Shown: positions 2,853-35,993 of the stretch, piece after piece
Layout of the letters: every line of letters begins with the position of its first letter
Numbering within the stretch: position 1 is the stretch's first letter
Source: Candidatus Poribacteria bacterium
Lineage (GTDB): Bacteria; Poribacteria; WGA-4E; PCPOR2b
Direction: 5' to 3'
Assembly (NCBI GenBank): GCA_965116925.1
Contig: OZ220744.1
Coordinates: 768,001-832,000 of the forward strand
DNA: 64,000 bases
The notes under the pieces: model-generated
Databases searched by the model: none
What the model was told of the DNA's origin: nothing
What the model saw: the letters and a program-made list of their open reading frames with translations, nothing else
Program-made: the position numbers and the translations under genes

Positions 2853-5800
2853 TTGACTTTGATCGGTACAAAAATTTCCCGCCCGTCTTCCTTCTTCATC
2901 CTTGCGTTCATTTTTGCCACGTTACATCCTCCCGCTGCTCAAGCCGAACCTGTTCTCAAAGACGTATCGCTGACAGAATACTACATGAAACGCCGCGCCC
3001 TAGCACTTGATACGGAAGAAACGGAGCCTCCAACCCAGCTTGCCGAAGAATCGAAGACACAAGATTTCTGGGCGGCTCCAGCGGATCCGGCTACAGACCC
3101 GTGGACAACCGAGCCGCTCCCGGCAGCCGAAGAAACAGAAGAGCAGGACATCCGCCTAGAGATGTTGACGCCGTACTACGAATCGTTGCGCCGGTGGAAG
3201 AATCCACCTTTCCTCCTTGATCTCCGCGACCTTGATGACTTACGCGAGGGACAACGGGAAGAGGAGGAGAAGGGGATTGCGCTGCCCCTCCAGTCTAATC
3301 TCCAGATCACGGGTCATAAGTCGGTAACAGTTGAATTACACCAGACGCACTATTTTGGCGAAGGTGATATCAACCGTTATGGCGGCAGTTATGGAGGGGG
3401 TAGTTTTGGCTCCGGCCTGGATCTTGGGTTGACCTCCTCCTATACCTACGATAGCTTTGGTAGCGGTTTCGGTGGCGGGTATGGTGGTGGATACGGTGGC
3501 GGTTTCGGTGGCGGGTATGGTGGCGGTTTCGGCGGCGGATATGGTGGTGGATATGACAGCGGTTTTGGGAGCGGTCGTTACGGCGTGCCTCGCGATACGG
3601 GGATAAATATTCGGCAAACCCTCGAAGTAGGCTTGCATGGGCGGGTTGGAGAACATACCCATGTTGAGGTTGACTATAGCGACTCCGGTGGCGGCTATGG
3701 CGGTGGATACGGTGGCTATAGCAGCGGTTACGGCGGTGGATACGGCGGTGCAAAGGAGCAGAAAATCCGCGTTTGGTATGAAGGGTCAGAAACGAGTATC
3801 CTCAAAACGCTTTCTTTTGGCGATCTAACACTTAACCTACCCAATACCCGCTTTTTGAACGTCAATCGCAATCTGTTTGGACTTGAGGCGGTCGCCCAAC
3901 TTGGTGGGGCAAAGTTGACGGCATTTGGCTCCCGCAGCAAAGGTATCACTGATATACGCCGTTTCCGTGGGGAGTCACGACGGGCAGGCGGTGGCAGAGG
4001 TCTCCCAATTCCTGATGCGAATTATGTTAAAGAACGGTTTTACCTTATTCAACTCGGCGAAGATGAACTCCTCCACGATTCCTACCGTCCAATTCAGCGT
4101 GGCAGTGAGGAAATCTATATTGACGATAACGTCGCGAGCAACAATCAGGGCGGCGTGCGGACGGGGCGCGGCTACTTCAACCTCCAACAAGCGGGGCGGG
4201 ACTATAATATCAATTACGAAACCGGTGAAATCGAGTTCTTAACGCCGATTTCCGCTAGCTACGAGATTGTCGTCGCTTATGAATATCTCGGCGAGGGCGG
4301 TGGTATGGTTGGAAAACCGGGGAATGTCTTTGAGGACGAGAACGGTGATGGCACGGTTGATGAAGAGGGAGAGGAAATCGGCTATGTCACCCTCAAAGGG
4401 AAAAGCCTGCGAGGCACAGAATCGAGACGCGTGTATAGTCTTGGCAACCGGAATATTAGCCCACGGGATTACCAAATCGCCATTGTGCGTCAGGGGAGTG
4501 GCGAATCGTTCGATACAGGGAGCGGAGAAATTCCGTATATCCAGATCTTTGGACTAGATGAAAATGGAGATGGTATCGTTGATCCGGAGTTTATCGACTT
4601 TGACCGAGGCATCCTGACGTTTCCTGATTTGCGTCCCTTTGTCATCGATGACCCCGCAAGTCCTTACTACCAATTTCGTGAACAGTTAAGCAACGAAGCC
4701 ATCTACCTCGAAAACCCAAGGACGACCGATGCGGCTTACACGATCATCGTAGATTATTCTTTTCAATCGGAGACGTACAACGTTGGGCTGTTTGTTATCC
4801 CAAACAGTGAGAAGGTGAGACTCAATGGGCAACTGCTGCAGCGCGATGTTGATTATACAATGATCTATGAAGTAGGAAGCCTTCGTTTTTTTACGGAACT
4901 TGATGAGTTCGACGAAATCGTGGTTGAATTTGAGAGAACTCCATTCGGTGGATCGCTGCAACAAACGGTTGCCGGAGTATGGCTAGAATATTCCTATATT
5001 CCCAAACCGAAGACAGAGAAGAAAGAGCAGAAGTTCGATCGGTTTGAGCGGCTTATCGGTAGGATTGATGGCCGGGAAATAGACGATCGGTCTGACATTG
5101 AGGACAGTCCCTTCGGCCGAAGGTCCCCGGGTGGATTTGGCGGCAGTCAATTTGGTGGCGGTAGGTCCCGTGGTTTTGGCGGTGGATTTGGCGGCGGCTT
5201 TGGTGGATACTCAAGTTTAGGTGGTCGATCTAGGCGAGGATTGCGCGCCGGTGGCAGTAGCTATTTTAATCCTACATTCCAGAAAGGATTTAGCTTTGCA
5301 ACAGGTTATATCCTGAACACCGGACAAAAACCGTCTCGTATCCCCGACGTCAACGGTGCGCCGAGCCGATTGCAGGCTGTCAATTTCAACACCAGCTTTG
5401 GCAGGGATTTCAATTTAGCATGGCTGTTGAACCCACTACCATTTGTCGCAATGCGTAATTTTCCGTTGTCAATAAATTTCAGCGGGGAAACAGCATTCTC
5501 GCACAATAACCCAAACAGTGTCGGGCTTGCCCTGATTGATAGTATGGAAGGGGCGCGGGAGGCGTCAAATACTCCTACGTTCAAACATCATTGGCGTGTG
5601 AGCAGTCTACCTGTCGCAGAAGGGGTGACCTTGGATAATCGCGCCCTTTTTCGGGTGCTCGCACGGGATCGCAACGAATCCCAAGCTGTTGGCAACTATA
5701 TGCGCAATCGTGAGGTGCCTGCATCGGTGATTAATCCGCTGGCAAACTCAACGGAAGAACGCCTCATCATGGAGGTTGGTTATGATCTGACAGATGTCAT

Positions 5801-8800
5801 TGAAGAGTGGGGCGGCTTTTCATACGGTTTGTCCGCCTCCGGCGAGGATTTCTCGGAACGCCAATTCCTCGAAATTTGGTTTCGTGTGCGTGGTGACTCG
5901 GATGTGACGTTGCATATCGATCTGGGTGTGGTCAGCGAAGATAGCGACTTGGATAACCGACTTGACACCGAAGATCTGCCACCGGAGCTAGAAGATATTA
6001 ACGGGGATGGAAAAGTCGACACGTTAGACCTTGATTTGGAAAATCTGCCTGCTTCCCACAAATTCCGCGCAAATGGCTCGTTGGACACAGGTGAGGATGT
6101 CGGGTGGGAGTATAGTGCTGGGTTCCAACCGACGAAAGTTGGGCCCAACAACACGGTTATGGATACGGAAGACCTTAACGGAGATGGCGTACTAGACACT
6201 GTCGATGCCTACCTTGAGATCAAAATTCCGCTCAACGATATCCCTGAAGAGTGGCTAAAACGGCAACATCCGAATGGCTGGACATTTCTAAGCATCCCCC
6301 TTAGCGCAGCCACAACTGAAGGCAATCGTCTACCGAACCTTGGTTTTATTCAACACCTGCGTTTTTGGTTACAGAAGAACAGATCCGGAACTGTCACAGG
6401 CAAATTTGAATGGGCGTCCATTGAGGTAGTCGGGGTGCAGTGGGAGCGCGGTGTGGTGACACGAAATGACGCAATTACCAACGATGCAGCCGAGCGGTTT
6501 ACCGTTGGGACCAAAGACAACTTCAATTTCAACGATTATCAGGCTGCTTATGACCAGATTAAGGAGGAGGACGATTTCAAAAGGTTACACCCCTTTACAG
6601 AATCGACATACGGTTACCAACAACGACAGCAGCGCGAACAAACACTGACGTTGAATTATGTACTTCTGCCGGAATCCTTCGGTGTGACATCACGAGTATT
6701 GCGCGGTCTGCAACATGGCGAAGGGCAAGATTTTTCAAAACACGACACGCTCAGATTGTGGATTTACGGCGACAGAAGCGAGACGACATTTGTGTTGCGC
6801 CTTGCGCCAAGCATCCGCACCGGATTTCGGTCTACTTATCGTTCTGCAGGTCCCTTTGAGGATCCGCAGGACCAAGAGGAAGATATCAATGTCTTTGAAA
6901 ATTTGAGGGATTTCTATGAATACACACGGGTGATTGATTTTGATGGCTGGAAACTGATTGAAATTGAGTTGCACGATCTAAAGCGAAATGAATATCCTGA
7001 TGCGAGCCCACTAACCGATCTAGGCGGCGTTATACCGCAGACAGGTCAAATTAGTCAACTGGATCCAACGACCTTGACGGACCCATCAACTGAGCCAGAG
7101 ATAGATGCCAACGCACCAGATGGACATCCAGATGGTTTCGTTGTGCGGGGCACAAACAGTTCCCAACTTTCGATAAAGAATGTTGGAGGCATTTTAATTG
7201 GCATCCGCAATGACACATCGCGGGAGATTGGTGGGGAATTGTGGGTCAACGAAATTCATCTAAGCAATCCGCTGGTCCGTTCAGGTTGGGCCCGGCGCGC
7301 CAACATGAACGTCAAACTTGGCAATCTGTTCAAGGTAGACGGTGGATATGCAAGGCAAGATAAGGACTTCGAGAATTCTGCCGGCGATACAGGGCGCCAA
7401 CGTCGCCACGATCTGGGATATAGCACGACTAGCAATGACTTCAATATCAATACCGAGCTCACCCTCTTTTCTTGGCTTCCCATCCGCTACTCGGTGCGAG
7501 AGGATGAATCTGAGACAGAGAGCCGGCGCGGATCTTTTAGTTCCTTCCAAAGTGGAAAGAGTAAAACAAAGAATCGGGATTTTTCGGCGAGTTTGAATTT
7601 GCGTCCACTTCCAGTGTTGGGGTTCGCGCTCAATCGCCAAGATTTCTGGAATGAACGCCAAGGCACGGAACTCAGCGATCTCTATACCGGTTCTTTCCAG
7701 TTCGATCTCGGTTCATTTTTTGGGCTGGATGTTCAGTATCATCACGAAGACGTTGAAACGGATTCGTCAACGGCGACAGATACCTCTAGCGGCAGCAGTT
7801 CTTCCTTTGGGAGCTACTATGGGCGCAGCCGAGATGAAAAGGTGGACAGCGGCAGTATTTCGATCGATATCAGCCCGTTTGAGAGTTTTAGCCTGAATCC
7901 GCAGTACGAAGTCCGCCGCACCCTTGAGAAACAGGATCCCAGTGCTCAAGGCGGACGTGGTTTCAGCAGTTTCGCGCAATCGACGACCTCAACAATGGAG
8001 GAGACAGAAGAACCGGCAGCAGTTCCTATATTCACCATTGCGGAACGAGAACATCGAATTGCTCTGAATCCACGTTTGAATCGGGATTTGCTAGGCATCC
8101 GTCCAACGATTAATAACCGAGTTAGCCTGAACGAGAACTGGTTTGGCGATCGAAAAGATGCCCGGATCAGCGCGAATGTCAGCTTAGGCCTCAATGTCCG
8201 TCCACGGGCGTGGTTCGGTTGGTTGTTCCGAGAGCCGGAACCTGAAACATCTCCCGAAGAAGAGGGGGAACAGGGGGCAGCAAAAGAAGGAGAGGAGGAA
8301 AACAGGGAACCGGGTGGTCCAACATCTAAATCGTCCTCAGAATTTGACAGCTTTGAGGAAGAAGCGCGCCTTGAGGAGAAGCGTCAACGAGAACTTGACC
8401 GGCTTGAACGGATGGGCATCGATTCCGAGACAATTCAAGACGCAGAGGATCAGCGCGGGGACTGGATCCGTCGTGATAAGGCAGAACTGGCACGGAAACT
8501 GAAAGAGCGAGAGGGTAAGCAAGAGGAAAAGAAAGCCGGCATTATTCAACGAAGCATCGAAAGTCTTGGGTTGAACGCGAATGTTAGTCTCAACAACCAA
8601 GATTCTCTGCGGGGATTGGAGCCGGGTATGCGGATTGCGGATATTTTACAACTTCCAGATGAGGCTGAGGAGCGCACCCAGTCGCGCCAAGGGACGCGCT
8701 ACAGTTTTCGGACATCGGTTGATCCGTGGAGTTGGGCATCACTCGGCGGCAACATTGACCTCAGCAACAATTTCACCAAGTCTTCGAGTACCTCCTCCAG

Positions 8801-9371
8801 ATCCGAGTCCCTCCGTTATGAAGGGGATGTTAAGATTTTCAACTCAAAAAACACATCAAGCCTGCAGCTGAGATACGGTTATACGCTACGAGATCAGAGC
8901 AATATCAGTACCCAGATTGGTCAGAGTACCGCTCATGAACCGTCAGTGAGTTGGAGTCATACATGGGGCGAGACGACAAGAACCGCATTTGGTATCCGCC
9001 TCACGGAACGCGACGGGGAACGAAGCGGGATTGATACGACCTCGTTTATTATTACACCGAACTTTAGCATTGATTACCGGGTGCGGATAGAAGGTGGCAT
9101 TCGGCTTCCCTTTATCGGCAAGGTGCCCCTTGAGCACGACTTAGATCTCAGTAACACCCTTTCAACGGTTATCCGTCGCGAACGGTTCGGGGCGAATCGA
9201 GAAGAACGGTCTGAGCGATATGAAACGTCTCTGCGGGTTGGGTATAGATTGAGCGAACGGCTCACTGCTGATCTGAGTCTTGGCTTGAGCTACAATAACG
9301 ATCGCGTTGAAGAGGGACGGGATTTTATTTCGGTGGCGAGTGCGTTGACGGTTCGCGGCGAGTTTGAGTGA
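2853..9371 (+). CDS. sprA: SprA/Sov-like very large outer-membrane beta-barrel protein (T9SS translocon-like)
   Basis: Signal peptide; FGDLTLNLPNTRF..NLFGL; SEKVRLNGQLLQRDVDYTMIYEVGSL; LIDSMEG; LHIDLGVVSED; DTEDLNGDG; GELWVNEIHLS; C-terminal alternating beta strands. Confidence 0.75.
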   Translation: MTLIGTKISRPSSFFILAFIFATLHPPAAQAEPVLKDVSLTEYYMKRRALALDTEETEPPTQLAEESKTQDFWAAPADPATDPWTTEPLPAAEETEEQDIRLEMLTPYYESLRRWKNPPFLLDLRDLDDLREGQREEEEKGIALPLQSNLQITGHKSVTVELHQTHYFGEGDINRYGGSYGGGSFGSGLDLGLTSSYTYDSFGSGFGGGYGGGYGGGFGGGYGGGFGGGYGGGYDSGFGSGRYGVPRDTGINIRQTLEVGLHGRVGEHTHVEVDYSDSGGGYGGGYGGYSSGYGGGYGGAKEQKIRVWYEGSETSILKTLSFGDLTLNLPNTRFLNVNRNLFGLEAVAQLGGAKLTAFGSRSKGITDIRRFRGESRRAGGGRGLPIPDANYVKERFYLIQLGEDELLHDSYRPIQRGSEEIYIDDNVASNNQGGVRTGRGYFNLQQAGRDYNINYETGEIEFLTPISASYEIVVAYEYLGEGGGMVGKPGNVFEDENGDGTVDEEGEEIGYVTLKGKSLRGTESRRVYSLGNRNISPRDYQIAIVRQGSGESFDTGSGEIPYIQIFGLDENGDGIVDPEFIDFDRGILTFPDLRPFVIDDPASPYYQFREQLSNEAIYLENPRTTDAAYTIIVDYSFQSETYNVGLFVIPNSEKVRLNGQLLQRDVDYTMIYEVGSLRFFTELDEFDEIVVEFERTPFGGSLQQTVAGVWLEYSYIPKPKTEKKEQKFDRFERLIGRIDGREIDDRSDIEDSPFGRRSPGGFGGSQFGGGRSRGFGGGFGGGFGGYSSLGGRSRRGLRAGGSSYFNPTFQKGFSFATGYILNTGQKPSRIPDVNGAPSRLQAVNFNTSFGRDFNLAWLLNPLPFVAMRNFPLSINFSGETAFSHNNPNSVGLALIDSMEGAREASNTPTFKHHWRVSSLPVAEGVTLDNRALFRVLARDRNESQAVGNYMRNREVPASVINPLANSTEERLIMEVGYDLTDVIEEWGGFSYGLSASGEDFSERQFLEIWFRVRGDSDVTLHIDLGVVSEDSDLDNRLDTEDLPPELEDINGDGKVDTLDLDLENLPASHKFRANGSLDTGEDVGWEYSAGFQPTKVGPNNTVMDTEDLNGDGVLDTVDAYLEIKIPLNDIPEEWLKRQHPNGWTFLSIPLSAATTEGNRLPNLGFIQHLRFWLQKNRSGTVTGKFEWASIEVVGVQWERGVVTRNDAITNDAAERFTVGTKDNFNFNDYQAAYDQIKEEDDFKRLHPFTESTYGYQQRQQREQTLTLNYVLLPESFGVTSRVLRGLQHGEGQDFSKHDTLRLWIYGDRSETTFVLRLAPSIRTGFRSTYRSAGPFEDPQDQEEDINVFENLRDFYEYTRVIDFDGWKLIEIELHDLKRNEYPDASPLTDLGGVIPQTGQISQLDPTTLTDPSTEPEIDANAPDGHPDGFVVRGTNSSQLSIKNVGGILIGIRNDTSREIGGELWVNEIHLSNPLVRSGWARRANMNVKLGNLFKVDGGYARQDKDFENSAGDTGRQRRHDLGYSTTSNDFNINTELTLFSWLPIRYSVREDESETESRRGSFSSFQSGKSKTKNRDFSASLNLRPLPVLGFALNRQDFWNERQGTELSDLYTGSFQFDLGSFFGLDVQYHHEDVETDSSTATDTSSGSSSSFGSYYGRSRDEKVDSGSISIDISPFESFSLNPQYEVRRTLEKQDPSAQGGRGFSSFAQSTTSTMEETEEPAAVPIFTIAEREHRIALNPRLNRDLLGIRPTINNRVSLNENWFGDRKDARISANVSLGLNVRPRAWFGWLFREPEPETSPEEEGEQGAAKEGEEENREPGGPTSKSSSEFDSFEEEARLEEKRQRELDRLERMGIDSETIQDAEDQRGDWIRRDKAELARKLKEREGKQEEKKAGIIQRSIESLGLNANVSLNNQDSLRGLEPGMRIADILQLPDEAEERTQSRQGTRYSFRTSVDPWSWASLGGNIDLSNNFTKSSSTSSRSESLRYEGDVKIFNSKNTSSLQLRYGYTLRDQSNISTQIGQSTAHEPSVSWSHTWGETTRTAFGIRLTERDGERSGIDTTSFIITPNFSIDYRVRIEGGIRLPFIGKVPLEHDLDLSNTLSTVIRRERFGANREERSERYETSLRVGYRLSERLTADLSLGLSYNNDRVEEGRDFISVASALTVRGEFE

Positions 9372-11010
9372 TTGTAAGGGACTGATTCGGTTTTACATCA
9401 GCAAGCTGATCGGCGTTCCCACTGTCCCACCGGACCGTAATTGCGTCAATTTGGGAATCATCTCCAACTCCGAAGATAGCGGTGAGTTCGCTCTGTGAGC
9501 AGTAGCTTGCTCCACTTTTCAGTATGCGCCTCTGTGTCCCGGATTTGGACTGTACGGTAATTTCCGCGCCGATTCCACTCCGATTGCTCTTGGTCCCGAT
9601 CAGTTTTAGCTTAATCCAATTGTTTCGATTCCCACCATCGTTACGGTATAGACGGGCTGCTGTATTGGAAGTATTGACCAACACATCCCAATCGCCATCG
9701 TTATCAATGTCCCCATACGCCGCACCGCGTCCGACGATCGGCTGTCGGAGATCTGAGCCGACTTTTGGTGCAACATCTTCAAACTGACCGTTACCGATGT
9801 TGTGGAACAGATGCGGTGGCTGTGCATAGGTTACTTCGCTCTGCACGGCATTGATATCGTTTTCAATGTGGCCATTGGCTGCGAAAATATCGAGTTTCCC
9901 ATCTAGGTCGAAATCGAAAAAGAAACAGCCAAATGTCAACGTTAGCAAGCTTGGAAGTCCAATCTTGGCAATAGGAGCATCATCAATAAAAAGCTCCGCC
10001 TCATTACGGTAAAGATTCATCATCTCATTGGAGAAATTGCCAATAACGAGGCTTTCCCGTCCGCTGCCATCGTAGTCCCCGGTGTCAACCCCCATCGCCC
10101 CTGTCGCAACACCTCTTTCGTCGAAAGCAACGCCGGTTTCTAGCCCCCTTTCGATAAAGGTCCCATCCCCGTTGTTCTGATAGAGCTTATTCGGTTGTGT
10201 GTCATTTGCTTCAAAGATGTCGGGGAAGCCATCGTTGTTGTAGTCAAATACGCAGACGCCGAGCGATTTACTAGTTGGGTCTTCAATCAGGGCAATTCGC
10301 GAAACATCGGTGAACGTCCCATCGCCACGATTCCTGAATAGTTTGCTCGCTTGACCCGGATACGATCTGGGACCGCAGTACGATTGATTCACACCATCTA
10401 ACGTGCAGAAAAGGTTGGTCTCAGGGGTCCATTCCACGTAATTGGCGACAAAGAGATCAAGATTACCATCTTTATCGTAATCTAGCCAAGCGCAGCTTGT
10501 GCCTAAACCGGGGTTATCGATTCCGGCAGCTTCCGTTGCATCAATAAAGGTTCCATCTCCTTGATTCTGGAATAACCGATCAGCCCCCAAGCAGCTTATA
10601 TACAGATCTGCATCACCGTCGTTATCGTAGTCGGCAGCGGCAACACCAAGCCCATACAATTCCACGGCAAGCCCGGCAGTTTCTGTGACATCTGTGAACG
10701 TTCCGTCTTGGTTGTTCCGATAGAGCCCCATTGTTTGCCGCCTTCCGGTGGGGTGTCCCGCCCAATCTTTACCGTTCACCAACAGAATATCCTGCCAGCC
10801 ATCGTTGTTGTAGTCAATAAACGCACAACCAGAAGCGATCTCTTCGGGAAGGTACTTTTCGCCAAACGCACCGGTGTTGTGGACAAAATCGATCCCTGCT
10901 TTGCTTGTAATATCGACAAATTGGGGGAGTGTTTCTGCGGCAGTTGCGCTTCGTATCCAGATTAGAGATATGAAGATAAAAATCCATTGTGTTGATGAGG
11001 TGGTTTTCAT
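9325..11010 (-). CDS. CRTAC1-like FG-GAP/VCBS repeat protein with C-terminal ASPIC/UnbV domain
   Basis: Signal peptide; repeated DYNNDG/DYDNDG/DFDLDG; GIGAEITV..SGASYCSQSELTAIFGVG; ATG 11010 preferred. Confidence 0.9.
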   Translation of the reverse strand: MKTTSSTQWIFIFISLIWIRSATAAETLPQFVDITSKAGIDFVHNTGAFGEKYLPEEIASGCAFIDYNNDGWQDILLVNGKDWAGHPTGRRQTMGLYRNNQDGTFTDVTETAGLAVELYGLGVAAADYDNDGDADLYISCLGADRLFQNQGDGTFIDATEAAGIDNPGLGTSCAWLDYDKDGNLDLFVANYVEWTPETNLFCTLDGVNQSYCGPRSYPGQASKLFRNRGDGTFTDVSRIALIEDPTSKSLGVCVFDYNNDGFPDIFEANDTQPNKLYQNNGDGTFIERGLETGVAFDERGVATGAMGVDTGDYDGSGRESLVIGNFSNEMMNLYRNEAELFIDDAPIAKIGLPSLLTLTFGCFFFDFDLDGKLDIFAANGHIENDINAVQSEVTYAQPPHLFHNIGNGQFEDVAPKVGSDLRQPIVGRGAAYGDIDNDGDWDVLVNTSNTAARLYRNDGGNRNNWIKLKLIGTKSNRSGIGAEITVQSKSGTQRRILKSGASYCSQSELTAIFGVGDDSQIDAITVRWDSGNADQLADVKPNQSLTITQTRREPSTHSPPK

Positions 11011-11083
11011 TATTGATTCATAAAAAATAAAGTGCAATACGATAAGCACGTGATGCGTGATACGTGATAACGTGATGAATAAG

Positions 11084-13852: not shown

Positions 13853-14965
13853 GTGAAAATTATGCAATTCAAAGCACATCTTGTTGATGATACGATCAGA
13901 AGTGTTTATGGACTGGAAGTTGCCGATATGAACGGTGATGGACAGAAGGATATTGTCATGGGCTCCACCGGCGAGCCGATCATTGTTTGGTACGAAGCAC
14001 CTGATTGGAAGAGGCATCTCATTTCAGATCAGCACCCCGGCAATATCACTATCGCCGCTCAGGATCTGACGGGAAACGGCTTACCGGATCTGTTTGTTGG
14101 AAGCGCGTTTAATCGGGGTGACCGTTCTCTCATCGAATATCTACATTGGCTCGAAGCCCCTACGGACGGTGGACAGTGGAAGAGTCATTTCATTGAAGAA
14201 ATCCCATACCTTCACCGGATCGCAGTTGCCGACATTAACGGTGATGGTCAACCCCTTCTGTTTGCCGCATCAATTCAGGGACCCGAAGGTGGGTTAGATG
14301 ATTGGTACGATCCGGGCAGTCTCTGGTGTTACCCGTTTCCAAGCGATCCGGTCAATGGTCCGTGGGAACGCCGCCTAATTGACGGAAAGTTGCATCTCAA
14401 TCATGGAATGAGTGTCGGCGATGTGGACGGGGATGGCAGGCTTGATATCCTGATTGGTTGTCGGGACGGGGTCATTTGGCTTGAACCTCCTGCGGATCCG
14501 TTAGAAGGCGAGTGGAGCCGATGGGTGATTAGTGACCAAGAGAGCAGCGAGGTTTTCACGGTCGATCTGGATGGCGATGGGGTCAACGAGATTTTATCCA
14601 TTGAACCGTGGCACGGGAACACGCTATCGTGGTATAAGGCATCGGGGGATTTGCGGACAGGTCAGTGGGCGCGACACCAGATTGATGATACGTTGAATCG
14701 TGGACACTCGCTGCATGGAGTTGACGTCGATGGCGATGGAAGGGTGGAAATTATCTCCGGGTATAACGGTGAGGGCTGGAACCTTCAACTCTATCGTCCT
14801 GAAGATCTTGATTGCAACCGGTGGACGAAAGAATTCATTGACCACGGTGGTTTGGGGGTCGGTAATATGCACGTGCTTGACCTGAACGATGACGGACGGG
14901 TGGACATCATCGCAGGGGGGTTGAGTACGGGTAATGTCAAGTGGTATGAGAATGTGGGTGCGTAG
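13853..14965 (+). CDS. FG-GAP/VCBS repeat beta-propeller protein (no obvious signal peptide)
   Basis: Repeated DMNGDGQKD, DINGDG, DVDGDGRLD, DLDGDGVNE, DLNDDGRVD. Confidence 0.85.
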   Translation: MKIMQFKAHLVDDTIRSVYGLEVADMNGDGQKDIVMGSTGEPIIVWYEAPDWKRHLISDQHPGNITIAAQDLTGNGLPDLFVGSAFNRGDRSLIEYLHWLEAPTDGGQWKSHFIEEIPYLHRIAVADINGDGQPLLFAASIQGPEGGLDDWYDPGSLWCYPFPSDPVNGPWERRLIDGKLHLNHGMSVGDVDGDGRLDILIGCRDGVIWLEPPADPLEGEWSRWVISDQESSEVFTVDLDGDGVNEILSIEPWHGNTLSWYKASGDLRTGQWARHQIDDTLNRGHSLHGVDVDGDGRVEIISGYNGEGWNLQLYRPEDLDCNRWTKEFIDHGGLGVGNMHVLDLNDDGRVDIIAGGLSTGNVKWYENVGA

Positions 14966-17015: not shown

Positions 17016-17093
17016 TGCGTAAAATCTTTTCGCTCATGTTAAAAAGCCGTGCAACAGAAATCGAGTTTGGCTCATGTTAAGAAATCGTGCAAA

Positions 17094-17125
17094 GAAACCG
17101 AGTTTTGAAGAAAAAACTCGGTTTC
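17094..17125. repeat. Palindromic repeat GAAACCGAGTTTT-GAAGAA-AAAACTCGGTTTC (possible terminator)
   Basis: Perfect stem; copies at about 18311, 19448 and 61037; here between convergent genes. Confidence 0.7.
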
Positions 17126-17149
17126 TCTTTGCGTTTTGCACTTTCTTTT

Positions 17150-17220
17150 TATAGTGGATCTTAGAATTATGAGACACGCCAAACCGGTGCGGTTAAAAAC
17201 CGCACCTACCGGGTTGAAGT
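17150..17220 (+). mobile_element. MITE family E, left part with an alternative REP
   Basis: tatagtggatcttagaatt.. then ggtgcggttaaaaaccgcacctac. Confidence 0.65.
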
Positions 17221-17232
17221 GAATAATGGCAG

Positions 17233-18252
17233 TTATCGTTTGCCCTGTTTGATCCGTCCCCATATTGTAAACTTTTTGCCGGTGGGTGAAACCGAAAAAG
17301 GAGTGTTCAACCATGCAGGTCCAAAGTCACTATGCGGATTATTGGTGAGGTTTTGCTTATTACCCCCATCGGCATCCATGACGTAGATTTCGCTCTTCCC
17401 GTCCCTATTAGAATTGAAGACAATACGTTGACTGTCGGGTGACCATGACGGAGACCCATCCCAATCACGATGATTGGTCAGTTTCTGTTGATTACCCCCA
17501 TCGGCATCCATCACGTAGATGTCAAAATTTATAGCGTCCCCCTTCCTATCAGCCATGAAGGCAATTCGTTTGCCGTCAGGAGACCATACAGGCCGCCAGT
17601 CATTATTCCGATTTTCAGTGAGTCTGTGTTGATTCGCCCCATCGGCATCCATCACATAGATTTCATAAATGATGTCCAAGTTGTGTACAACGTGCCCCTC
17701 CCTCTGAGCACTGAAGACAATCCGTTTACCATCCGGGGACCATGCGGGATCCGTGTCCGATGTGAGGTTTTTAGTGAGGTTTAGTTGATTGCTTCCATCG
17801 GCATCCATCACGTAGATTTCAATGTTATGCCCCTTATCGTTATCCCTATCAGACTGGAAAACAATGCGTTTGCCGTCAGGGGACCATGAGGGATCTCTGT
17901 CATCAGCGGGATGGTTAGTGAGGTTTTGCTGATTCCCCCCATCGGCGTCCATCACGTAGATGTCAGAACTAAAAAAACCGGGGATACGCAAGGGGTGCCC
18001 ATCCCTATCAGATATGAAGACAATCCGTTTACCGTCGGGTGACCATGAGGGTTCATAGTCCCTAGCGAGATTATTGGTAAGTCTACGCTGATTTTTTCCA
18101 TCGGCATCCATCACGTAGATTTCAGGGTTACCATCTCTACGAGACACGAAGGCAATCTGTGCCTGTGCGTCAACGACTGCTATCAGCGGTGTCAGACTTA
18201 ATGCTACACCGGTAGCTAAAATCAGATGTGCAAACCTATATCTTCGGTGCAT
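17233..18252 (-). CDS. Secreted TolB-like PD40 six-blade beta-propeller, paralog 1
   Basis: Signal peptide ending AQA; six [18 protein letters not shown] units; tail SVSPTGKKFTIWGRIKQ. Confidence 0.9.
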   Translation of the reverse strand: MHRRYRFAHLILATGVALSLTPLIAVVDAQAQIAFVSRRDGNPEIYVMDADGKNQRRLTNNLARDYEPSWSPDGKRIVFISDRDGHPLRIPGFFSSDIYVMDADGGNQQNLTNHPADDRDPSWSPDGKRIVFQSDRDNDKGHNIEIYVMDADGSNQLNLTKNLTSDTDPAWSPDGKRIVFSAQREGHVVHNLDIIYEIYVMDADGANQHRLTENRNNDWRPVWSPDGKRIAFMADRKGDAINFDIYVMDADGGNQQKLTNHRDWDGSPSWSPDSQRIVFNSNRDGKSEIYVMDADGGNKQNLTNNPHSDFGPAWLNTPFSVSPTGKKFTIWGRIKQGKR

Positions 18253-18357
18253 TTGCTATGCCTCCTCTGGTTTCAAATCGGTTTTGGCTCAGGTCAAGAA
18301 ATAGTGCAAAGAAACCGAGTTTTGAAGAAAAAACTCGGTTTCTCTCAACAGTGGCAG

Positions 18358-19389
18358 TTAGCGATTTGCCTGTTTGACTCGTCCCCATAGCGTGAGGGTC
18401 TTACCGGCGGGAGCAACGGAGAAAGCAGGACCAAACCATGCAGGAGCAAGGTCAGCATTGGGATTATTAGTGAGTCTTTGAAGATTCCCCCCATCGGCAT
18501 CCATTACGTAGATTTCAAGGCTTTCCCAGTCCCCAGGCTTATAAGACGAGAAGGCAATCCGTTTGCTGTCCGGTGACCATGAGGGATTCCGGTCAATGAT
18601 GCGATTTTCAGTGAGTCTTTGAAGATTCCCCCCATCGGCGTCCATCACGTAAATTTCAAAGTTTTGCCAGTCCCCCTTCCTATCAGATGAGAAGGCAATC
18701 CGTTCACCGTCAGGAGACCATACGGGTGACAACTCATTATTCCGATTATTGGTGAGTCTGTGTTGATTCCCCCCATCGGCGTCCATCACGTAGATTTCAT
18801 AAGTGATGTCCAAGTTATGTACAACGTGCTCCTCCCTACGGGCACTGAAGACAATCCGTTGACCGTCGGGTGACCACGAGGGATATTGGTCCTCAGTAAG
18901 ATTGTTAGTGAGTCTTTGTTGATTCCCGCCATCGGCGTCCATCACGTAGATGTCAATGCCATGAGGCTGACCCTCCGCATCCCTATCAGACTCGAAGGCA
19001 ATGCGTTTACCGTCCGGTGACCACGAGGGATACCTATCATCAGAGGGATTGTTAGTGAGTCTTTGTTGATTATCTCCATCGGCGTCCATCACGTAGATTT
19101 CATAAGTGGACCAACCGTGTCTAGCGTGGACATGCCCATCTCTAGCAGACATGAAGACTATCCGTTTACCGTTAGGAGACCATGAGGGGTTGATGTCAGC
19201 ATGGGGATGATTGGTGAGTCTACGCGGATTACCTCCATCGGCGTTCATCACGTAGATTTCAAAGTTCCCATCCCTCTTAGACGCAAAGGCAATCTGTGCC
19301 TGTGCGTCAACGACTATCATCAGCGATGTCAGACTTAATGCTACAACGATAGTTAAAATCATACGGGCGAGACTATGTCTTCGGCGCAT
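18358..19389 (-). CDS. Secreted TolB-like PD40 beta-propeller, paralog 2
   Basis: Same architecture; tail SVAPAGKTLTLWGRVKQ. Confidence 0.9.
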   Translation of the reverse strand: MRRRHSLARMILTIVVALSLTSLMIVVDAQAQIAFASKRDGNFEIYVMNADGGNPRRLTNHPHADINPSWSPNGKRIVFMSARDGHVHARHGWSTYEIYVMDADGDNQQRLTNNPSDDRYPSWSPDGKRIAFESDRDAEGQPHGIDIYVMDADGGNQQRLTNNLTEDQYPSWSPDGQRIVFSARREEHVVHNLDITYEIYVMDADGGNQHRLTNNRNNELSPVWSPDGERIAFSSDRKGDWQNFEIYVMDADGGNLQRLTENRIIDRNPSWSPDSKRIAFSSYKPGDWESLEIYVMDADGGNLQRLTNNPNADLAPAWFGPAFSVAPAGKTLTLWGRVKQANR

Positions 19390-19494
19390 CTGCTATGCCT
19401 CCTATGGTTTCAAATCGGTTTTGGCTCAGGTCAAGAAATAGTGCAAAGAAACCGAGTTTTGAAGAAAAAACTCGGTTTCTCTCAACAGTGGCAG

Positions 19495-20466
19495 TTAGCG
19501 GTTTGCCTGTTTGACCCGTCCCCATAGCGTGAGGGTCTTACCGGCGGGAGCAACGGAAAAAGCAGGACCAAACCATGCAGGAGCAAGGTCATCCTCGGGA
19601 TGATTGGTGAGGTTTTTAGGGTTACTCCCATCGGCATTCATCACAAAGATGTCAGGGTTCGCATCTACTTCTCTATCAGATACGAAGACAATCCGCCTCC
19701 CGTCAGGGGACCATGAGGGCTCCGTATCCTTAAAGGGATGATTGGTGATGTTTCGCGGATTATTCCCATCAGCATCCATCACGTAGATTTCAGCGTTCCC
19801 ATCCCTCCAGGACGCAAAGGCAATGCGCTTGCCGTCAGGAGACCAGGAGGGATTTTCATCATGACTGGCATTGTTGGTGAGGTTTTGCTTATTCCCCCCA
19901 TCGGCGTCCATCACGTAGATTTCCATGTTCCCACCTCGCCAAGAATGAAAGGCAATGCGCTTGCCGTCAGGAGACCAGGAGGGCCCATAGTCAGGAGAGC
20001 GATCATTGGTGAGATTTTTTGGTTTGCTCCCATCGGCGTTCATCACATAGATTTCAGGGCCCCCACCCCTCTGAGACGTGAAGGCAATCCGTTTGCCATC
20101 GGGAGACCATGCGGGGTCCGAGTCTTCAAAGTCATTGTCAGAAAGGTTTCGTTGATTTGCTCCATCGGCGTCCATCACGTAGATTTGCCGGTTCCAATCC
20201 TTACCACTCCTATCAGCCGTAAAGACAATCTGTTTGCCGTCAGGAGACCATGAGGGATGCCCGTCATCACCGGGGGCGTTAGTCAGGTTTCGCTGATTAC
20301 CGCCATCGGTATCCATCACGTAAATCTCCCACTCCCAATCGTTCCAATCTCTATCAGACATGAAGACAATCTGTGCCTGTGCGTCAATGACTACCATCAG
20401 CGGTGTTGGTCCCAACACGACAACGATAGTTAAAATCAGATGTGCGAGAGTGTCCCTTCGTTGCAT
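19495..20466 (-). CDS. Secreted TolB-like PD40 beta-propeller, paralog 3
   Basis: Same architecture, shorter loops; tail identical to paralog 2. Confidence 0.9.
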   Translation of the reverse strand: MQRRDTLAHLILTIVVVLGPTPLMVVIDAQAQIVFMSDRDWNDWEWEIYVMDTDGGNQRNLTNAPGDDGHPSWSPDGKQIVFTADRSGKDWNRQIYVMDADGANQRNLSDNDFEDSDPAWSPDGKRIAFTSQRGGGPEIYVMNADGSKPKNLTNDRSPDYGPSWSPDGKRIAFHSWRGGNMEIYVMDADGGNKQNLTNNASHDENPSWSPDGKRIAFASWRDGNAEIYVMDADGNNPRNITNHPFKDTEPSWSPDGRRIVFVSDREVDANPDIFVMNADGSNPKNLTNHPEDDLAPAWFGPAFSVAPAGKTLTLWGRVKQANR

Positions 20467-20705
20467 CTGTTATTCCACCTCTGTTCTCAAATCGGCTGTT
20501 TATTGTTTAGGGATGATAGAGGTCCGCTGGTGTTGGCAACCCCTTTACAATTATAGTTATAATATAGACACAAATTCCTGCTGGGAGTTCTCAAGTAAAG
20601 TAACAATTCGGACTATTATCACGTGAAACCTTCGCCCCTTCTTTGGTGTTTATGACATCCCCCCGGACACTCATAGATCTCAGCAAACACTGTTTTCTCA
20701 GTAAT

Positions 20706-20922
20706 CTAGTACACTGTCAGGCAAATTATGATTGTCTATATGGATCGAGACTCATAATACTTCGTAGGAGTCGGGTGACCCGACCCCCGCACTGGCAAAT
20801 AAGGGCGGGGAGACCCCGCCCCTACAATTTATTTTCGTGCTTTGCACTTTCTACATGAGCCCTGATTGAAAGCAAACGATAACATATATAATAATTCCAA
20901 AACTTATATGACTGAGTACTAG
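20706..20922 (-). mobile_element. MITE family A, inverted and expanded (217 bp)
   Basis: ctagtacactgtca...tgactgagtactag; extra REP inside; one CTAG contains the stop codon of paralog 4. Confidence 0.82.
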
Positions 20923-21950
20923 TGGTCAACCTGTTTGAGCTGTCCCCATATTGTAAACTTTTTGCCGGTGGGAGAAACCGAAAAAGGAGAGTTCAACCAT
21001 GCAGGACCAACGTCACTATGTGGATTATTGGTGAGGTTTTGAAGATTTCCCCCATCGGCATCCATCACGTAGATTTCAGAGTTTCCATCCCTCCGAGACA
21101 CGAAGGCAATCCGTTCACTGTTTGGAGACCAGGAGGGTGATCCGTTCCAAGTGTGATGATTGGTGAGATTTTGAAGATTTCCCCCATCGGCGTTCATCAC
21201 ATAGATGTCAAATATTCTAACGTCCCCCTTCGTATCAGATGAGAAGGCGATTCGTTCACCATCAGGGGACCATACGGGCTGCCAATCATTATTGCGATTT
21301 TCAGTGAGTCTTTGTTCATTACCCCCATCGGCGTCCATTACGTAGATTTCATCAGTGATTCTGAGGATGTTTCTAAAGTGCCCTTCCCTACTGGAACTGA
21401 AGACAATGCGTTTACCGTCGGGAGACCAGGAGGGATACTTGTCCTCATTGGGACTGTTAGTGAGATTTTGAGGGTTGCTACCATCGGCGTTCATCACGTA
21501 GATTTCAGAGTTATGCGGATCATCCCTGCCCTGATCCCTATCAGACGAGAAGATAATGCGTTTACCGTCTGGGGACCATGAGGGTGCCCCGTCATCACCG
21601 CGATGATTGGTGAGGTTTTGCTGGTTCCCCCCATCGGCGTCCATCACGTAGATCTCAGAAGTGGGTCTACCGTGTATACCGTCTTTAGCGTGCCCATCCC
21701 TATTAGACACAAAGACAATGTGCTTGCCGTCCGGTGACCATGAGGGTGAATGGTCACTAGCGGGGTTATTGGTGAGATTTTGCTGATTCCCCCCATCGGT
21801 ATCCATCACGTAGATTTCAGCGTTCCCATCCCTACCAGACGAGAAAGCAATCCGTGCCTGTGCATCAACGCACATCATCAGCAGTGTCAGCACCAAGGCG
21901 GCTATAACGCTAGCTAAGATCAAATGTGCGCGATTGGTTTTCGGCGGCAT
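20919..21950 (-). CDS. Secreted TolB-like PD40 beta-propeller, paralog 4
   Basis: Same architecture; tail SVSPTGKKFTIWGQLKQ. Confidence 0.9.
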   Translation of the reverse strand: MPPKTNRAHLILASVIAALVLTLLMMCVDAQARIAFSSGRDGNAEIYVMDTDGGNQQNLTNNPASDHSPSWSPDGKHIVFVSNRDGHAKDGIHGRPTSEIYVMDADGGNQQNLTNHRGDDGAPSWSPDGKRIIFSSDRDQGRDDPHNSEIYVMNADGSNPQNLTNSPNEDKYPSWSPDGKRIVFSSSREGHFRNILRITDEIYVMDADGGNEQRLTENRNNDWQPVWSPDGERIAFSSDTKGDVRIFDIYVMNADGGNLQNLTNHHTWNGSPSWSPNSERIAFVSRRDGNSEIYVMDADGGNLQNLTNNPHSDVGPAWLNSPFSVSPTGKKFTIWGQLKQVDH

Positions 21951-22020
21951 CCGTTATTCCTCCTCTGTTGTCAAAGCGGTTTGGTATCCTTAAACGTCAT
22001 TTTCTCAATAATAGTAGTTA

Positions 22021-23052
22021 TCAGTCACCCTGTTTGAGCCGTCCCCATATTGTAAACTTTTTGCCCGCGGGGGCAACGGCAAAAGTAGGAACAAACCATG
22101 CAGGACCACCATCATTCCTCGGATGATTAGTGAGTTGTTGCGGATTGCCCCCGTCGGCATCCATCACATAGATGTCCCCGTTCCCATTCCTATCAGAGGA
22201 AAAGATAATGCGTTTACCATCCGGTGACCATGAGGTCCCCCCATCATCATCGCGATTTTCAGTGAGTCTTTGTAGATTACCGCCATCGTCGTCCATCACA
22301 TAGATTTCATAATTTAGCCAGTCTCCCTTCCTATCGGATGAGAAGGCAATGCGTTTGCCATCGGGTGACCATGAGGGTGAGGCATCATTCTTGCGGTTTT
22401 CAGTGAGTCTCTGTTCATTACCCCCATCAACGTCCATCACATAAATTTCAGAAGTGGTGATTTCAAAATCGCCTATAAAGTGTCCATCCCTTTCAGAGGA
22501 AAAGACAATGCGTTTACCGTCGGGGGACCATGAGGGATACCTGTCATCAGTGCGATTGTTAGTGAGGTTTTGAGGATTCTCTCCATCGGCATCCATCACG
22601 TAGATTTCAGTAGTGGGGAAACCGTGTATGTCAAGGAACCTATCCCTATCAGACACGAATGCAATCCGTTTGCCGTCCGGTGACCATGAGGGAGAACTGT
22701 CACCAGCGGGATGGTTAGTGAGGTTTTGCGGATTGCCCCCGTCGGCATCCATCACATAGATTTCAAAAGTGGTCCTAACACCGTCCCTACGGACGTGCCC
22801 AGCCCTATCAGACATGAAGGCAATGCGTTTGCCGTCCGGTGACCATGAAGGAGAACTGTCCCAAGCGGGGTTATTGGTGAGGTTTCGCTGGTTTTTCCCA
22901 TCATCGTCCATCAGGTAGATTTCATAGTTCCTATCCCTATCAGACACAAAGGCAATTCGTGCCTGTGCCCCAACGACTACCATCATCAGAGTCAGCCCCA
23001 AGACTATAACGCTAGCTAAAATGAAATGGGCGAGATTATATCTCTGTTGCAT
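22021..23052 (-). CDS. Secreted TolB-like PD40 beta-propeller, paralog 5
   Basis: Same architecture; tail AVAPAGKKFTIWGRLKQ. Confidence 0.9.
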   Translation of the reverse strand: MQQRYNLAHFILASVIVLGLTLMMVVVGAQARIAFVSDRDRNYEIYLMDDDGKNQRNLTNNPAWDSSPSWSPDGKRIAFMSDRAGHVRRDGVRTTFEIYVMDADGGNPQNLTNHPAGDSSPSWSPDGKRIAFVSDRDRFLDIHGFPTTEIYVMDADGENPQNLTNNRTDDRYPSWSPDGKRIVFSSERDGHFIGDFEITTSEIYVMDVDGGNEQRLTENRKNDASPSWSPDGKRIAFSSDRKGDWLNYEIYVMDDDGGNLQRLTENRDDDGGTSWSPDGKRIIFSSDRNGNGDIYVMDADGGNPQQLTNHPRNDGGPAWFVPTFAVAPAGKKFTIWGRLKQGD

Positions 23053-23137
23053 CCGTTATTCCTCCGCTATTGTCAAATCGGTTTATGTTTCTTTGGAGTG
23101 GATAGAGGTCGGCTTGTGTTGGCAACCCTTTTACAAT

Positions 23138-23263
23138 TATGGTAGATTTTAGAATTAATTAGACACTGTAAACCAGCGAGGTTAGGGACCTTGTACGCGG
23201 AGTTACGGCACACGGAGTGTGCCTACTACTTTGAATGTCTACTTATTTTTAGGATTCACTATA
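23138..23263 (+). mobile_element. MITE family E with a third cargo type
   Basis: E ends around ggcacacggagtgtgcctactac; same variant at 29591. Confidence 0.8.
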
Positions 23264-23359
23264 AAAGAGCAATTCGGATTATTATTGTATGAACTCGTCA
23301 TCCCCTCTTTGGCGTTTATGACCCAATCTCAACGAACGCTGTTTTCACGATAATGGCGG

Positions 23360-24319
23360 TTATTGGTCAACCCGTTTGAGCTGTCCCCACATCGTGAGGG
23401 TTTTAGTTGTGGGGGGAACTGAAAGAACAGCGTTATACCATGCAGGTGCTTTCTCGTCCTCGGGGTGATTGGTGATGTTTCGCGGATTTGCCCCATCGGC
23501 GTCCATCACAAAGATGTCCGGATTAAAATCCCTCGTCCGATTCGACACAAAGGCAATCCGTTTACTGTCGGGCGACCATGAGGGTGAATAGTCCCTATCG
23601 GGGTGATTGGTGACGTTTCGCTGATTCCGCCCATCGGCGTCCATTACGTAGATATCTGTGCGAAGAGCCCCAGGTCCAAAGGCATCAAAGGCAATGTGTT
23701 TACCGTTAGGGGACCATGAGGGATTATTGTCATCAGTGTCACTAATGGTAAGGTTTCGCTGATTCTCCCCATCGGCATCCATCACGTAGATTTCTAGGTT
23801 TCCAGCGCGCTCCCTCCTAGAGGTAGCAAAGACAATGTGCCTACCGTCCGGCGACCATGAGGGTGACCTGTCTGTATGGCCCCTATTATTGGTGAGGTTT
23901 AGCCGATTTTCCCCATCGGCATCCATCACGTAGATTTGTCGGTCCCACACAAAGGCAATCTGTTTACCGTCCGGAGACCATGAAGGTTCCTTGTCGTCAA
24001 AGTCATTGTTGGAAAGGTTTCGCTGATTCCCCCCGTTGGCGTCCATCACGTAGATTTGCCGGTTCCCATTCCTATTAGACGAGAAGGCAATCCGTGTGCC
24101 GTCAGGAGACCATGAGGGGTCCCTATCATCACCAGGATTATTAGTGAGATTTCGCTGATTGCCCCCATGGTTGTCCATCACATAGATTTCCCAGTTCCAA
24201 TCCCTATCAGACATGAAGGCAATCCGTGCCTGTGCATCAACGCATACCATCAGCAGTGTCAGCCCTAGCACGACAACGATCGCTAAGATCAAATGTGCGA
24301 GAGTATGTCTCCGTTGCAT
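23360..24319 (-). CDS. Secreted TolB-like PD40 beta-propeller, paralog 6
   Basis: ATG 24319 after gagga RBS; tail [17 protein letters not shown]. Confidence 0.9.
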
Positions 24320-24480
24320 CTGTCTGTCCTCCTCTGGTCTCAAATCGGTTTATTATTCTTTGGGGGTGATACGGGTCAGCTAGTGTTAGCAATCCCTTTT
24401 CAACTAAAATTATACAACCATTTAAGCAATTTATGCAACGTCGTATCCCAAAACAGGGTATCAAACAGACAAAATCACTA

Positions 24481-24640
24481 TCGGCGCAGTTGGAAACAGC
24501 GCCTACCAAACATGGGGGGCGAAAGTGTCTGTTTATTTTTAGAATTCACTATAATTGGACTCTCCAAATCGGCGCAGTTGGAAACAGCGCCTACCAAACA
24601 TGGGGGGCGAAAGTGTCTGTTTATTTTTAGAATTCACTAT
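24481..24640 (+). mobile_element. Tandem duplicated right parts of MITE family E
   Basis: Two direct copies of tcggcgcagttggaaacagcgcctacc...gaattcactat. Confidence 0.8.
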
Positions 24641-24951
24641 GGTAATCGAAACCGAGCGCAGTGCAAAACCTGTCCCCCTACATTTTTCCAATTTCACTTG
24701 CGGATAATTGCAATCCTTGTTATAATCAGTTCATTTCCGGCTTACAATTTTTCTGGATATATGTTTGCAAATCTGTGGTTTTCTGATACGATTTTTTACG
24801 AATTGAATCATAGCAACTATCTCTCTCTGGTTCACAGGGGCATTGTGGATTGGCGATTGACTTATTGACTCATGGGGCGGGGGAACCCCGCCCCTACGAT
24901 TTCGCTTCATATTTTGCACGTTCTCTTTGCGTGAGTCGATCTATTTTGATC

Positions 24952-34673: not shown

Positions 34674-35993
<1,320 letters not shown>

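Follow-up and report, generated by a model that had tools for sequence, protein, structure and literature searches.

Six consecutive genes in the genome of a sponge-associated Candidatus Poribacteria bacterium, here called g1 to g6, encode small exported beta-propellers that all end in the same kind of short C-terminal tail. The genes lie in a stretch of 64,000 nucleotides (positions 768,001 to 832,000 of contig OZ220744.1, assembly GCA_965116925.1; hereafter the window), where they appear as six minus-strand open reading frames (ORFs) at window positions 17233-24319, each consisting of a leader peptide, six blades of the PD40 type and a tail of 24-25 residues. The reading that we consider probable is that g1 to g6 belong to a germline multigene family of exported, stand-alone TolB-like PD40 binding modules, which would be sorted in the cell envelope by way of this tail, or tag.

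Architecture, fold and relation to TolB

The six proteins are 319-343 residues long, with pairwise identities of 56-71% in alignment, and share one layout, i.e. a leader of 31-32 residues, six repeats of about 44-53 residues each, and the tag after the last P.W strand. PD40 (PF07676) was identified in all of them, with E-values from 8.6e-57 to 6.1e-69 and scores of 188-227 bits against a cut-off of 20.9. The profile scores five stretches per protein; six blades are present in the structural model. This AlphaFold model, made for g5 from an alignment of 117 sequences, has a mean predicted local distance difference test score (pLDDT) of 85.2 and a predicted template modelling score (pTM) of 0.82, and contains a helical leader (residues 2-29), six four-stranded blades and a tail (residues 326-343) that is modelled as disordered (pLDDT <50). 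Closure of the modelled propeller follows the 1+3 'velcro' scheme, in which the blade begun by the N-terminal strands is completed by the last P.W strand.

The leaders of the six genes end in ..AQA ahead of (Q/R)I.F and, as recognized from the alignment and from the helix in the model, are predicted to be export leaders. Their n-region carries a near-invariant pair of arginines (at least 90% in 117 sequences), which is lacking in the ordinary leaders of other proteins with the tag. Twin-arginine export was considered on account of this conserved pair but rejected, as no Tat family was matched and the hydrophobic core is long; for these two reasons the Sec route is taken as the working assumption.

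When the g5 model was compared with the Protein Data Bank (PDB) using Foldseek, TolB propellers came out on top (1c5k, 1crz and 2hqs), with E-values of about 1e-22 (the best being 7.5e-23, for 1c5k), a template modelling (TM) score of 0.71, a root mean square deviation of 2.2 Å and 25% identity. Next in rank were a stand-alone 'putative TolB' (2ojh) and the propellers of S9 peptidases. What the array proteins have in common with the C-terminal propeller of TolB is thus the six-bladed PD40 fold, export behind a leader, and the best structural match. They differ from TolB in the lack of the TolB_N domain, in having dozens of paralogues per genome instead of a single gene, and in the extra C-terminal tag and long blade-specific inserts. 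The TolB equivalog profile TIGR02800 gave 225.5-270.9 bits for the six proteins, under its curated cut-off of 343.15, and TolB_N (PF04052) had no match in them at E <= 0.01. Neither were any tol-pal families matched in the 18 flanking ORFs that were scanned (up to window position 35975), which include a SprA-like ORF, FG-GAP proteins, one or more oxidoreductases, PhyH, acetate kinase, a phosphoesterase and HslVU. Judged by these profile matches the proteins are not true TolB, as a reading made earlier from the sequence alone (the sequence-only reading) had already claimed. In the closed, 99% complete genome, no ORF matched TolB_N and none exceeded the TIGR02800 cut-off; no search for Pal, TolA or TolQR was made. 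Canonical TolB may be absent from this lineage, or very divergent.

Where the blades vary

The six proteins could be split into 36 blades, six each, and all the loop strings quoted in the sequence-only reading were found among them. At the DNA level, a blade core of 57 nucleotides occurs in 35 copies, those listed sharing 65-84% identity, and this repetition is not attributable to chance. Column entropies were calculated over 264 aligned blade units from 57 paralogues in the genome, a set that includes 30 units from the window. The strands and most framework columns (IYVM, DG, LT, P.WSPDG and I.F.S.R) have entropies below 1 bit. High values are found in the variable columns of the D-A loop, i.e. 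the connection from strand D to the next strand A (2.5-3.7 bits), and in those of the B-C loop (2.6-3.8 bits). Averaged over the listed columns, both loops reach about 2.7 bits, compared to about 0.75 for the A-B turns (SPDGKR) and about 1.3 for the C-D turns. Residues D, N, G, H and E are abundant in the loops.

With respect to length the two loops behave differently. The B-C loop varies between 1 and 19 residues, with a mode of 5, and its long inserts are not random, being tied to blade position and common to paralogues. The D-A loop, on the other hand, has eight residues in 285 out of 316 blades genome-wide and in 35 out of 36 in the window. The sequence-only reading described a fixed framework over the 36 blades of six exported propellers, which is borne out by the PF07676 matches, the blade splitting and the entropies, and two positions per blade varying in both sequence and length, which holds for sequence at both positions and for length at the B-C position only.

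The blade connections in the g5 model are an A-B turn of five residues, a long B-C loop, a C-D turn of six residues, and the link from D to the next A. By the strand order of an antiparallel blade, the model places the tight A-B and C-D turns at one blade end and the B-C and D-A connections together at the opposite end. The variable loops would thereby form one face of the propeller, as had been predicted from the sequence, and the conserved turns (SPDG, DADG) the other.

A large family within Poribacteria

The genome harboring the window (G000) is a closed single contig of 6.47 Mb with 99.1% completeness. A search of this genome with a profile built from the six proteins returned 111 ORFs at E <= 1e-5, out of which 57 score at least 340 bits. 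These strong paralogues are distributed over 16 clusters, one of them formed by g1 to g6 and the largest with 14 genes; all 57 have the tag and 46 have the same leader junction. The family has about 60 to 70 members, of which g1 to g6 are ordinary diverged copies.

In a collection of species-level genomes, the closest loci belong almost exclusively to Candidatus Poribacteria, and DNA searches with the array gave many matches in each of the 12 genomes from the same genus (12/12). Among the genomes examined, the PD40 propeller family is specific to Poribacteria. Sponge symbionts are rich in 'eukaryote-like' repeat proteins (WD40, PD40, TolB-like), with which the family shares domain class and habitat. 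PD40 is among the domains enriched in Ircinia symbiont genomes (PMC9531527), and a TolB-like propeller entry together with WD40 is enriched in the Spongia officinalis microbiome (PMC5735121). The enrichment results of these two papers consist of domain counts, and do not as such describe gene arrays, a shared leader, a C-terminal tag or variation of a loop face.

A C-terminal tag on unrelated proteins

The tag is present in all six window proteins, behind the N-terminal leader at the other end. The ORF set of the genome (2.45 million residues) contains 131 instances of the tag's core motif, WG.[LIVF]K, of which 113 fall within the last 25 residues. Out of the 113 tagged ORFs, 71 match the PD40 profile, including all the strong paralogues, and 42 do not. 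Twenty of the latter were scanned against Pfam, whereby 15 matched six other domain types, namely Laminin_G_3 (seven ORFs), Kelch (three), CBM9 (two), PKD together with Cohesin (one), a 3-keto-disaccharide hydrolase-like domain (one) and a DUF3108-like domain (one), while no family was found for five. Judged by eye, nearly all of the tagged non-PD40 ORFs start with a leader. The tail is a portable tag, common to unrelated small binding domains and situated outside the domain fold. It was found in seven out of eight Poribacteria loci examined, one locus lacking it, whereas in four close PD40 homologs from outside the phylum (in Acidimicrobiia, Gemmatimonadota and Dehalococcoidia) the protein stops with the last propeller strand and has no tag.

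A short conserved C-terminal signature on many unrelated exported proteins of one lineage is also what characterizes the PEP-CTERM/exosortase, LPXTG/sortase and GlyGly-CTERM systems. Their signals consist of a hydrophobic membrane-spanning stretch followed by a terminal basic cluster. The Poribacteria tag has neither the hydrophobic stretch nor a basic cluster after one, and no such family was matched; lacking the hydrophobic stretch, it does not look like a signal of the PEP-CTERM or LPXTG type. In the library searched, no paper was found that links Poribacteria with a sorting signal. GFO/IDH/MocA (beside 12 clusters) and PhyH (beside eight) were tried as leads from the surroundings of tagged-gene clusters and rejected; both families are abundant genome-wide, which probably explains their recurrence.

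A possible link to type IX secretion

The type A C-terminal secretion domain (TIGR04183) has 71 matches in the genome, none of them in the six array proteins. Inspection by eye of the 50 residues upstream of this domain revealed a tag-like peptide in seven out of 40 such stretches, ending 5-7 residues before the domain and often with the tryptophan replaced by L or F. With the strict motif WG.[LIVF]K, only chance matches were obtained ahead of secretion domains, the link emerging once the tryptophan was allowed to vary. A hidden Markov model (HMM) built from the 113 tags gave 14 internal matches, five of which are directly followed, 5-7 residues on, by the start of a secretion domain, and two of these five are PD40 propellers (G000:C1:1970226-1971653 and 1976021-1977451). 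Some type IX cargo, PD40 propellers included, thus has in common with the array proteins a tag-like peptide, placed directly before the type A domain. The two C-termini differ in that the tail of the array proteins is about 20-25 residues long and modelled as disordered, whereas the type A domain is Ig-like and comprises about 70-90 residues.

Both kinds of C-terminus are found in a cluster outside the window, G000:C1:1966489-1978285, where two tagged ORFs, one of which encodes a Kelch protein, neighbor PD40 propellers that end in a type IX secretion domain preceded by a tag-like peptide. From this mixed cluster it follows that the PD40 fold occurs with either ending. In type IX secretion, the C-terminal secretion domain is removed from the cargo. 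The free tag resembles the cargo end that would be left after such removal, which suggests the same envelope-sorting logic but is no proof of a mechanism.

About 8 kb from the propeller array, at window positions 2853-9371 on the plus strand, there is a SprA-like ORF of 2172 residues, with 28.4 bits for SprA_N (cut-off 27) and 62 bits for TIGR04189 (cut-off 200). It may encode the translocon of a divergent type IX secretion system.

Gene turnover and selection in the array

In the sister genome G005, the array likewise adjoins acetate kinase and retains g1, g2, g3, g5 and g6, at 88, 88, 91, 84 and 96% identity, respectively. No ortholog of g4 was found at this place in the syntenic array; a different PD40 gene of 304 residues is located there instead (locus L074, G005:C1:1346500-1359500). 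The same locus has an extra PD40 gene beside the g1 ortholog, on the acetate-kinase side, and its g6 ortholog is an ORF of just 229 residues, possibly truncated. Another genome, G008, has three g1-like copies. This turnover amounts to gene birth and death. Within the array itself, the copying of a g1-g2-g3 triplet to g4-g5-g6 was considered and not established: g1 and g4 (71%) as well as g3 and g6 (66%) are mutual best pairs, g2 and g5 (65%) are not.

Ratios of nonsynonymous to synonymous substitution (dN/dS) were obtained by the NG86 method, pooled over the five gene pairs between G000 and G005. They amount to 0.14 for the framework (864 codons), 0.35 for the D-A loop (233 codons), 0.55 for the B-C loop (230 codons), 0.55 for the tail and 0.66 for the leader. 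The loops thus evolve at two to four times the rate of the scaffold, yet stay constrained. In 13 sequences sharing 77-87% identity with g5, moreover, the long B-C loops show next to no variation in blades 3, 4 and 5. Loops conserved under purifying selection are what the sequence-only reading had named as contradicting its proposal of a surface-binder repertoire, and such conservation is seen in part, i.e. in loop dN/dS values below 1 and in blades 3-5 of g5.

Proposed role of the propellers

According to our preferred reading, the propellers would reach the periplasm across the inner membrane through Sec and fold there, after which the tag would pass them to an envelope sorting or anchoring step related to the events at the junction that lies ahead of the C-terminal domains of type IX secretion. 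Glycans of the host or of particles, or matrix proteins, would most likely be the ligands bound by the variable face; the other tagged proteins are lectin-like. The diversity of the propellers would be germline-encoded, arising by tandem duplication, gene gain and loss, and a faster but constrained change of the loops, and involving no somatic or programmed hypervariation. The role as binding modules proposed in the sequence-only reading is thereby plausible, in contrast to its epithets 'hypervariable' and 'antibody-like', against which stand the lack of a reverse transcriptase and of donor repeats and the dN/dS values below 1.

Several points weigh against this reading. Everything in it beyond export, i.e. 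ligand, location and tag processing, is what we infer. The split between conserved turns and variable loops is the PD40 profile's own pattern and so not special to this locus; being generic to PD40, it is by itself no proof of selection for binding diversity. The assignment of the loops to one face is an argument from strand topology in the model, rather than from measured coordinates, and some variation lies off that face, namely in two outward-facing columns of strand B (3.1 and 3.5 bits) and, moderately, in the C-D turn (up to 2.5 bits). Regarding selection, dN/dS of the B-C loop rises to 0.87 in comparisons with the more distant genomes G007 and G008, where orthology is less certain, and either some diversifying selection or wrong orthology may lie behind this value. 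For blade 2 of g5, the 13 relatives mentioned above have a loop in one of three forms, two long and one short, a switching that could stem from recombination between paralogues. As for the sorting step, no recurrent candidate sorting enzyme was found in the flanks of 39 tagged-gene clusters, the individual HMM matches of the tag before secretion domains are weak (E 0.06-0.7) although consistent in position, and the SprA-, PorU- and PorV-like ORFs of the genome all fall below curated cut-offs.

A more far-reaching idea, which we put forward tentatively and hold to be a good deal less probable than the family reading itself, is that Poribacteria run a hitherto undescribed display system, with more than 100 small tagged binding domains per genome docked on, or covalently anchored to, one surface acceptor. 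The modules would be PD40 propellers above all, supplemented by Kelch, LamG, CBM9 and PKD/cohesin domains, and the tag, taken to be the very peptide found ahead of type IX secretion domains, would dock them much as dockerin and cohesin do in cellulosomes. The PD40 arrays would then make up the largest germline 'repertoire', serving to recognize sponge matrix, glycans or particles.

Understood as above, the PD40 class of Poribacteria is more than a loose set of domain matches: it makes up one coherent family of genes, united by the leader, the fixed scaffold, a single diversified face and the shared, address-like tail. The locus also corrects an over-reading, in that the diversity would not be programmed hypervariation but inherited differences between paralogues that are kept under constraint. 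New cell-envelope biology is most likely to come from the tag and from its placement ahead of type IX secretion domains.

Alternative functions

A housekeeping role in the periplasm, either as a TolB substitute for envelope integrity or as free propellers that bind peptides for periplasmic S9-type peptidases, would agree with the ranking of the structural matches (TolB first, S9 peptidase propellers after) and with weak scores for DPPIV_N and Peptidase_S9_N, and in a genome without canonical TolB or TolB_N some PD40 protein might fill that role. We nevertheless regard it as unlikely, as a family of about 57 to 71 paralogues, whose loop faces diverge, far exceeds such a need and the 18 flanking ORFs scanned offered no tol-pal match. 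Furthermore, lectin-like modules (LamG, CBM9 and Kelch) bear the same tag, and type IX secretion domains are found on some PD40 paralogues, which points outward and not to the periplasm.

Even less probable, in our view, is that g1 to g6 are six-bladed propeller enzymes (lactonase, phosphotriesterase or lyase-like) acting on sponge-derived substrates. Weak matches to Pectate_lyase22 (E down to 5.8e-10), exceeding the 30-bit cut-off in five out of six proteins, cover partial stretches, one protein matches SGL at E 0.0018, and the genome has many carbohydrate-active neighbors; however, the matches to both families overlap the generic propeller repeats. Conservation lies in the structural PD40 turns, the would-be active-site face is the variable one, and besides the structural D, N and P no loop-face column is invariant across the paralogues.

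Search for programmed hypervariation

The sequence-only reading saw in the array an antibody-like repertoire of hypervariable loops, and proposed to look for a diversifying reverse transcriptase or recombinase elsewhere. No RVT_1 match was obtained in the 6.47 Mb. None of the six genes is incomplete, and all lie on one strand, each with a leader of its own; no donor or silent cassettes were seen, the intragenic repeats being only 60-86% identical, and no simple-sequence tracts of the kind used in phase variation were found in the array. Together with syntenic orthologs at 84-96% identity and loop dN/dS below 1, this runs counter to the proposal. The variable proteins of diversity-generating retroelements do resemble the propellers in their fixed scaffold and in the focusing of variability on a ligand-binding surface. 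Here, in contrast, there is no reverse transcriptase, no pair of template and variable repeats and no adenine-directed change, and the diversity is found between paralogous genes, not within one gene.

Read-level data came from Logan contigs of three DNA-type runs and one RNA run, placed on the array at 90% likeness, these contigs being short. Variant letters in the public runs are mostly transitions, on both strands, and show no adenine-specific bias. In run X1, 1485 out of 3699 placed records fit two places, so that paralogues cross-map; the many 'joints' are repeat artefacts. Out of the 34 best-supported coding variant sites, a count resting on the 40 variants listed of 304, 17 are in loop codons, which make up 29% of codons, but this excess is confounded by the cross-mapping.

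An actively diversified repertoire, in which a retroelement, cassette recombination or phase variation rewrites the loops, could appeal to these 17 sites, to the concentration of sequence and length variation in the loops of one face, and to the three forms of the g5 blade-2 loop, one of which resembles a g1 loop, but against the evidence above, including the conservation of orthologous loops, it is largely refuted and the least credible of the explanations considered.

Features of the array, spacers and neighboring genes

The positions of the genes and their parts are collected in Table 1. The final 30 residues of g3 are identical to those of g2. For g6, an alternative upstream start, TTG at 24343, would give a protein of 327 residues (ORF 23360-24343).

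Table 1. Features of the propeller array, with positions in the window.
Feature	Position	Strand	Description
g1	17233..18252	-	Leader, six PD40 blades and C-terminal tag; long-loop type; 339 aa; PF07676 E 2.6e-64; TIGR02800 270.9 bits
g2	18358..19389	-	Architecture as g1; long-loop type; 343 aa; PF07676 E 1.6e-67; TIGR02800 257.9 bits
g3	19495..20466	-	Architecture as g1; short-loop type; 323 aa; PF07676 E 6.1e-69
g4	20919..21950	-	Architecture as g1; 343 aa; PF07676 E 1.1e-62
g5	22021..23052	-	Architecture as g1; long-loop type; 343 aa; PF07676 E 1.4e-68; protein modelled
g6	23360..24319	-	Architecture as g1; short-loop type; 319 aa from ATG at 24319; PF07676 E 8.6e-57
Predicted leader, g1	18160..18252	-	From alignment
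Predicted leader, g2	19297..19389	-	From alignment
Predicted leader, g3	20374..20466	-	From alignment
Predicted leader, g4	21855..21950	-	From alignment
Predicted leader, g5	22960..23052	-	31 codons; ends ..GAQA before RIAF; helix 2-29 in model
Predicted leader, g6	24227..24319	-	From alignment
Tag, g1	17233..17310	-	Conserved tail
Tag, g2	18358..18435	-	Conserved tail
Tag, g3	19495..19572	-	Conserved tail
Tag, g4	20919..20996	-	Conserved tail
Tag, g5	22021..22095	-	24 codons and stop
Tag, g6	23360..23437	-	Conserved tail
Hairpin repeat, 3' of g1	17058..17128		About 75 nt
Hairpin repeat, 3' of g2	18275..18345		Further copy
Hairpin repeat, 3' of g3	19412..19482		Further copy

A promoter scan of the array gave seven promoter-like sites, compared to 12.2 expected, i.e. 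nothing above chance. Contigs of one RNA library placed on g2 (3/214 mismatches) and g6 (5/247) are a weak hint of expression, DNA carry-over being possible.

The copies of the hairpin repeat are 93-100% identical to each other, form a terminator-like hairpin and may act as terminators. With about 247 BLAST matches genome-wide, the element is a dispersed repeat, similar to a repetitive extragenic palindrome (REP) or a miniature inverted-repeat transposable element (MITE). Other spacers also hold dispersed repeats, at 17027-17224, 20703-20918, 23055-23265 and 24478-24649, with 308, 77, 137 and 384 matches in the genome, respectively, and a perfect unit of 88 nucleotides is repeated 1.8 times at 24480-24640. 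FG-GAP repeat proteins, one of them with ASPIC/UnbV, are encoded at 9325-11049 (minus strand) and 13853-14965 (plus strand), flanking GFO/IDH/MocA and PhyH genes. Lastly, depth in the public runs reaches up to about ten times that of the genes over the spacers at 20551-20787, 22921-23394, 18181-18417 and 19366-19602, the last two being those with hairpin repeats.

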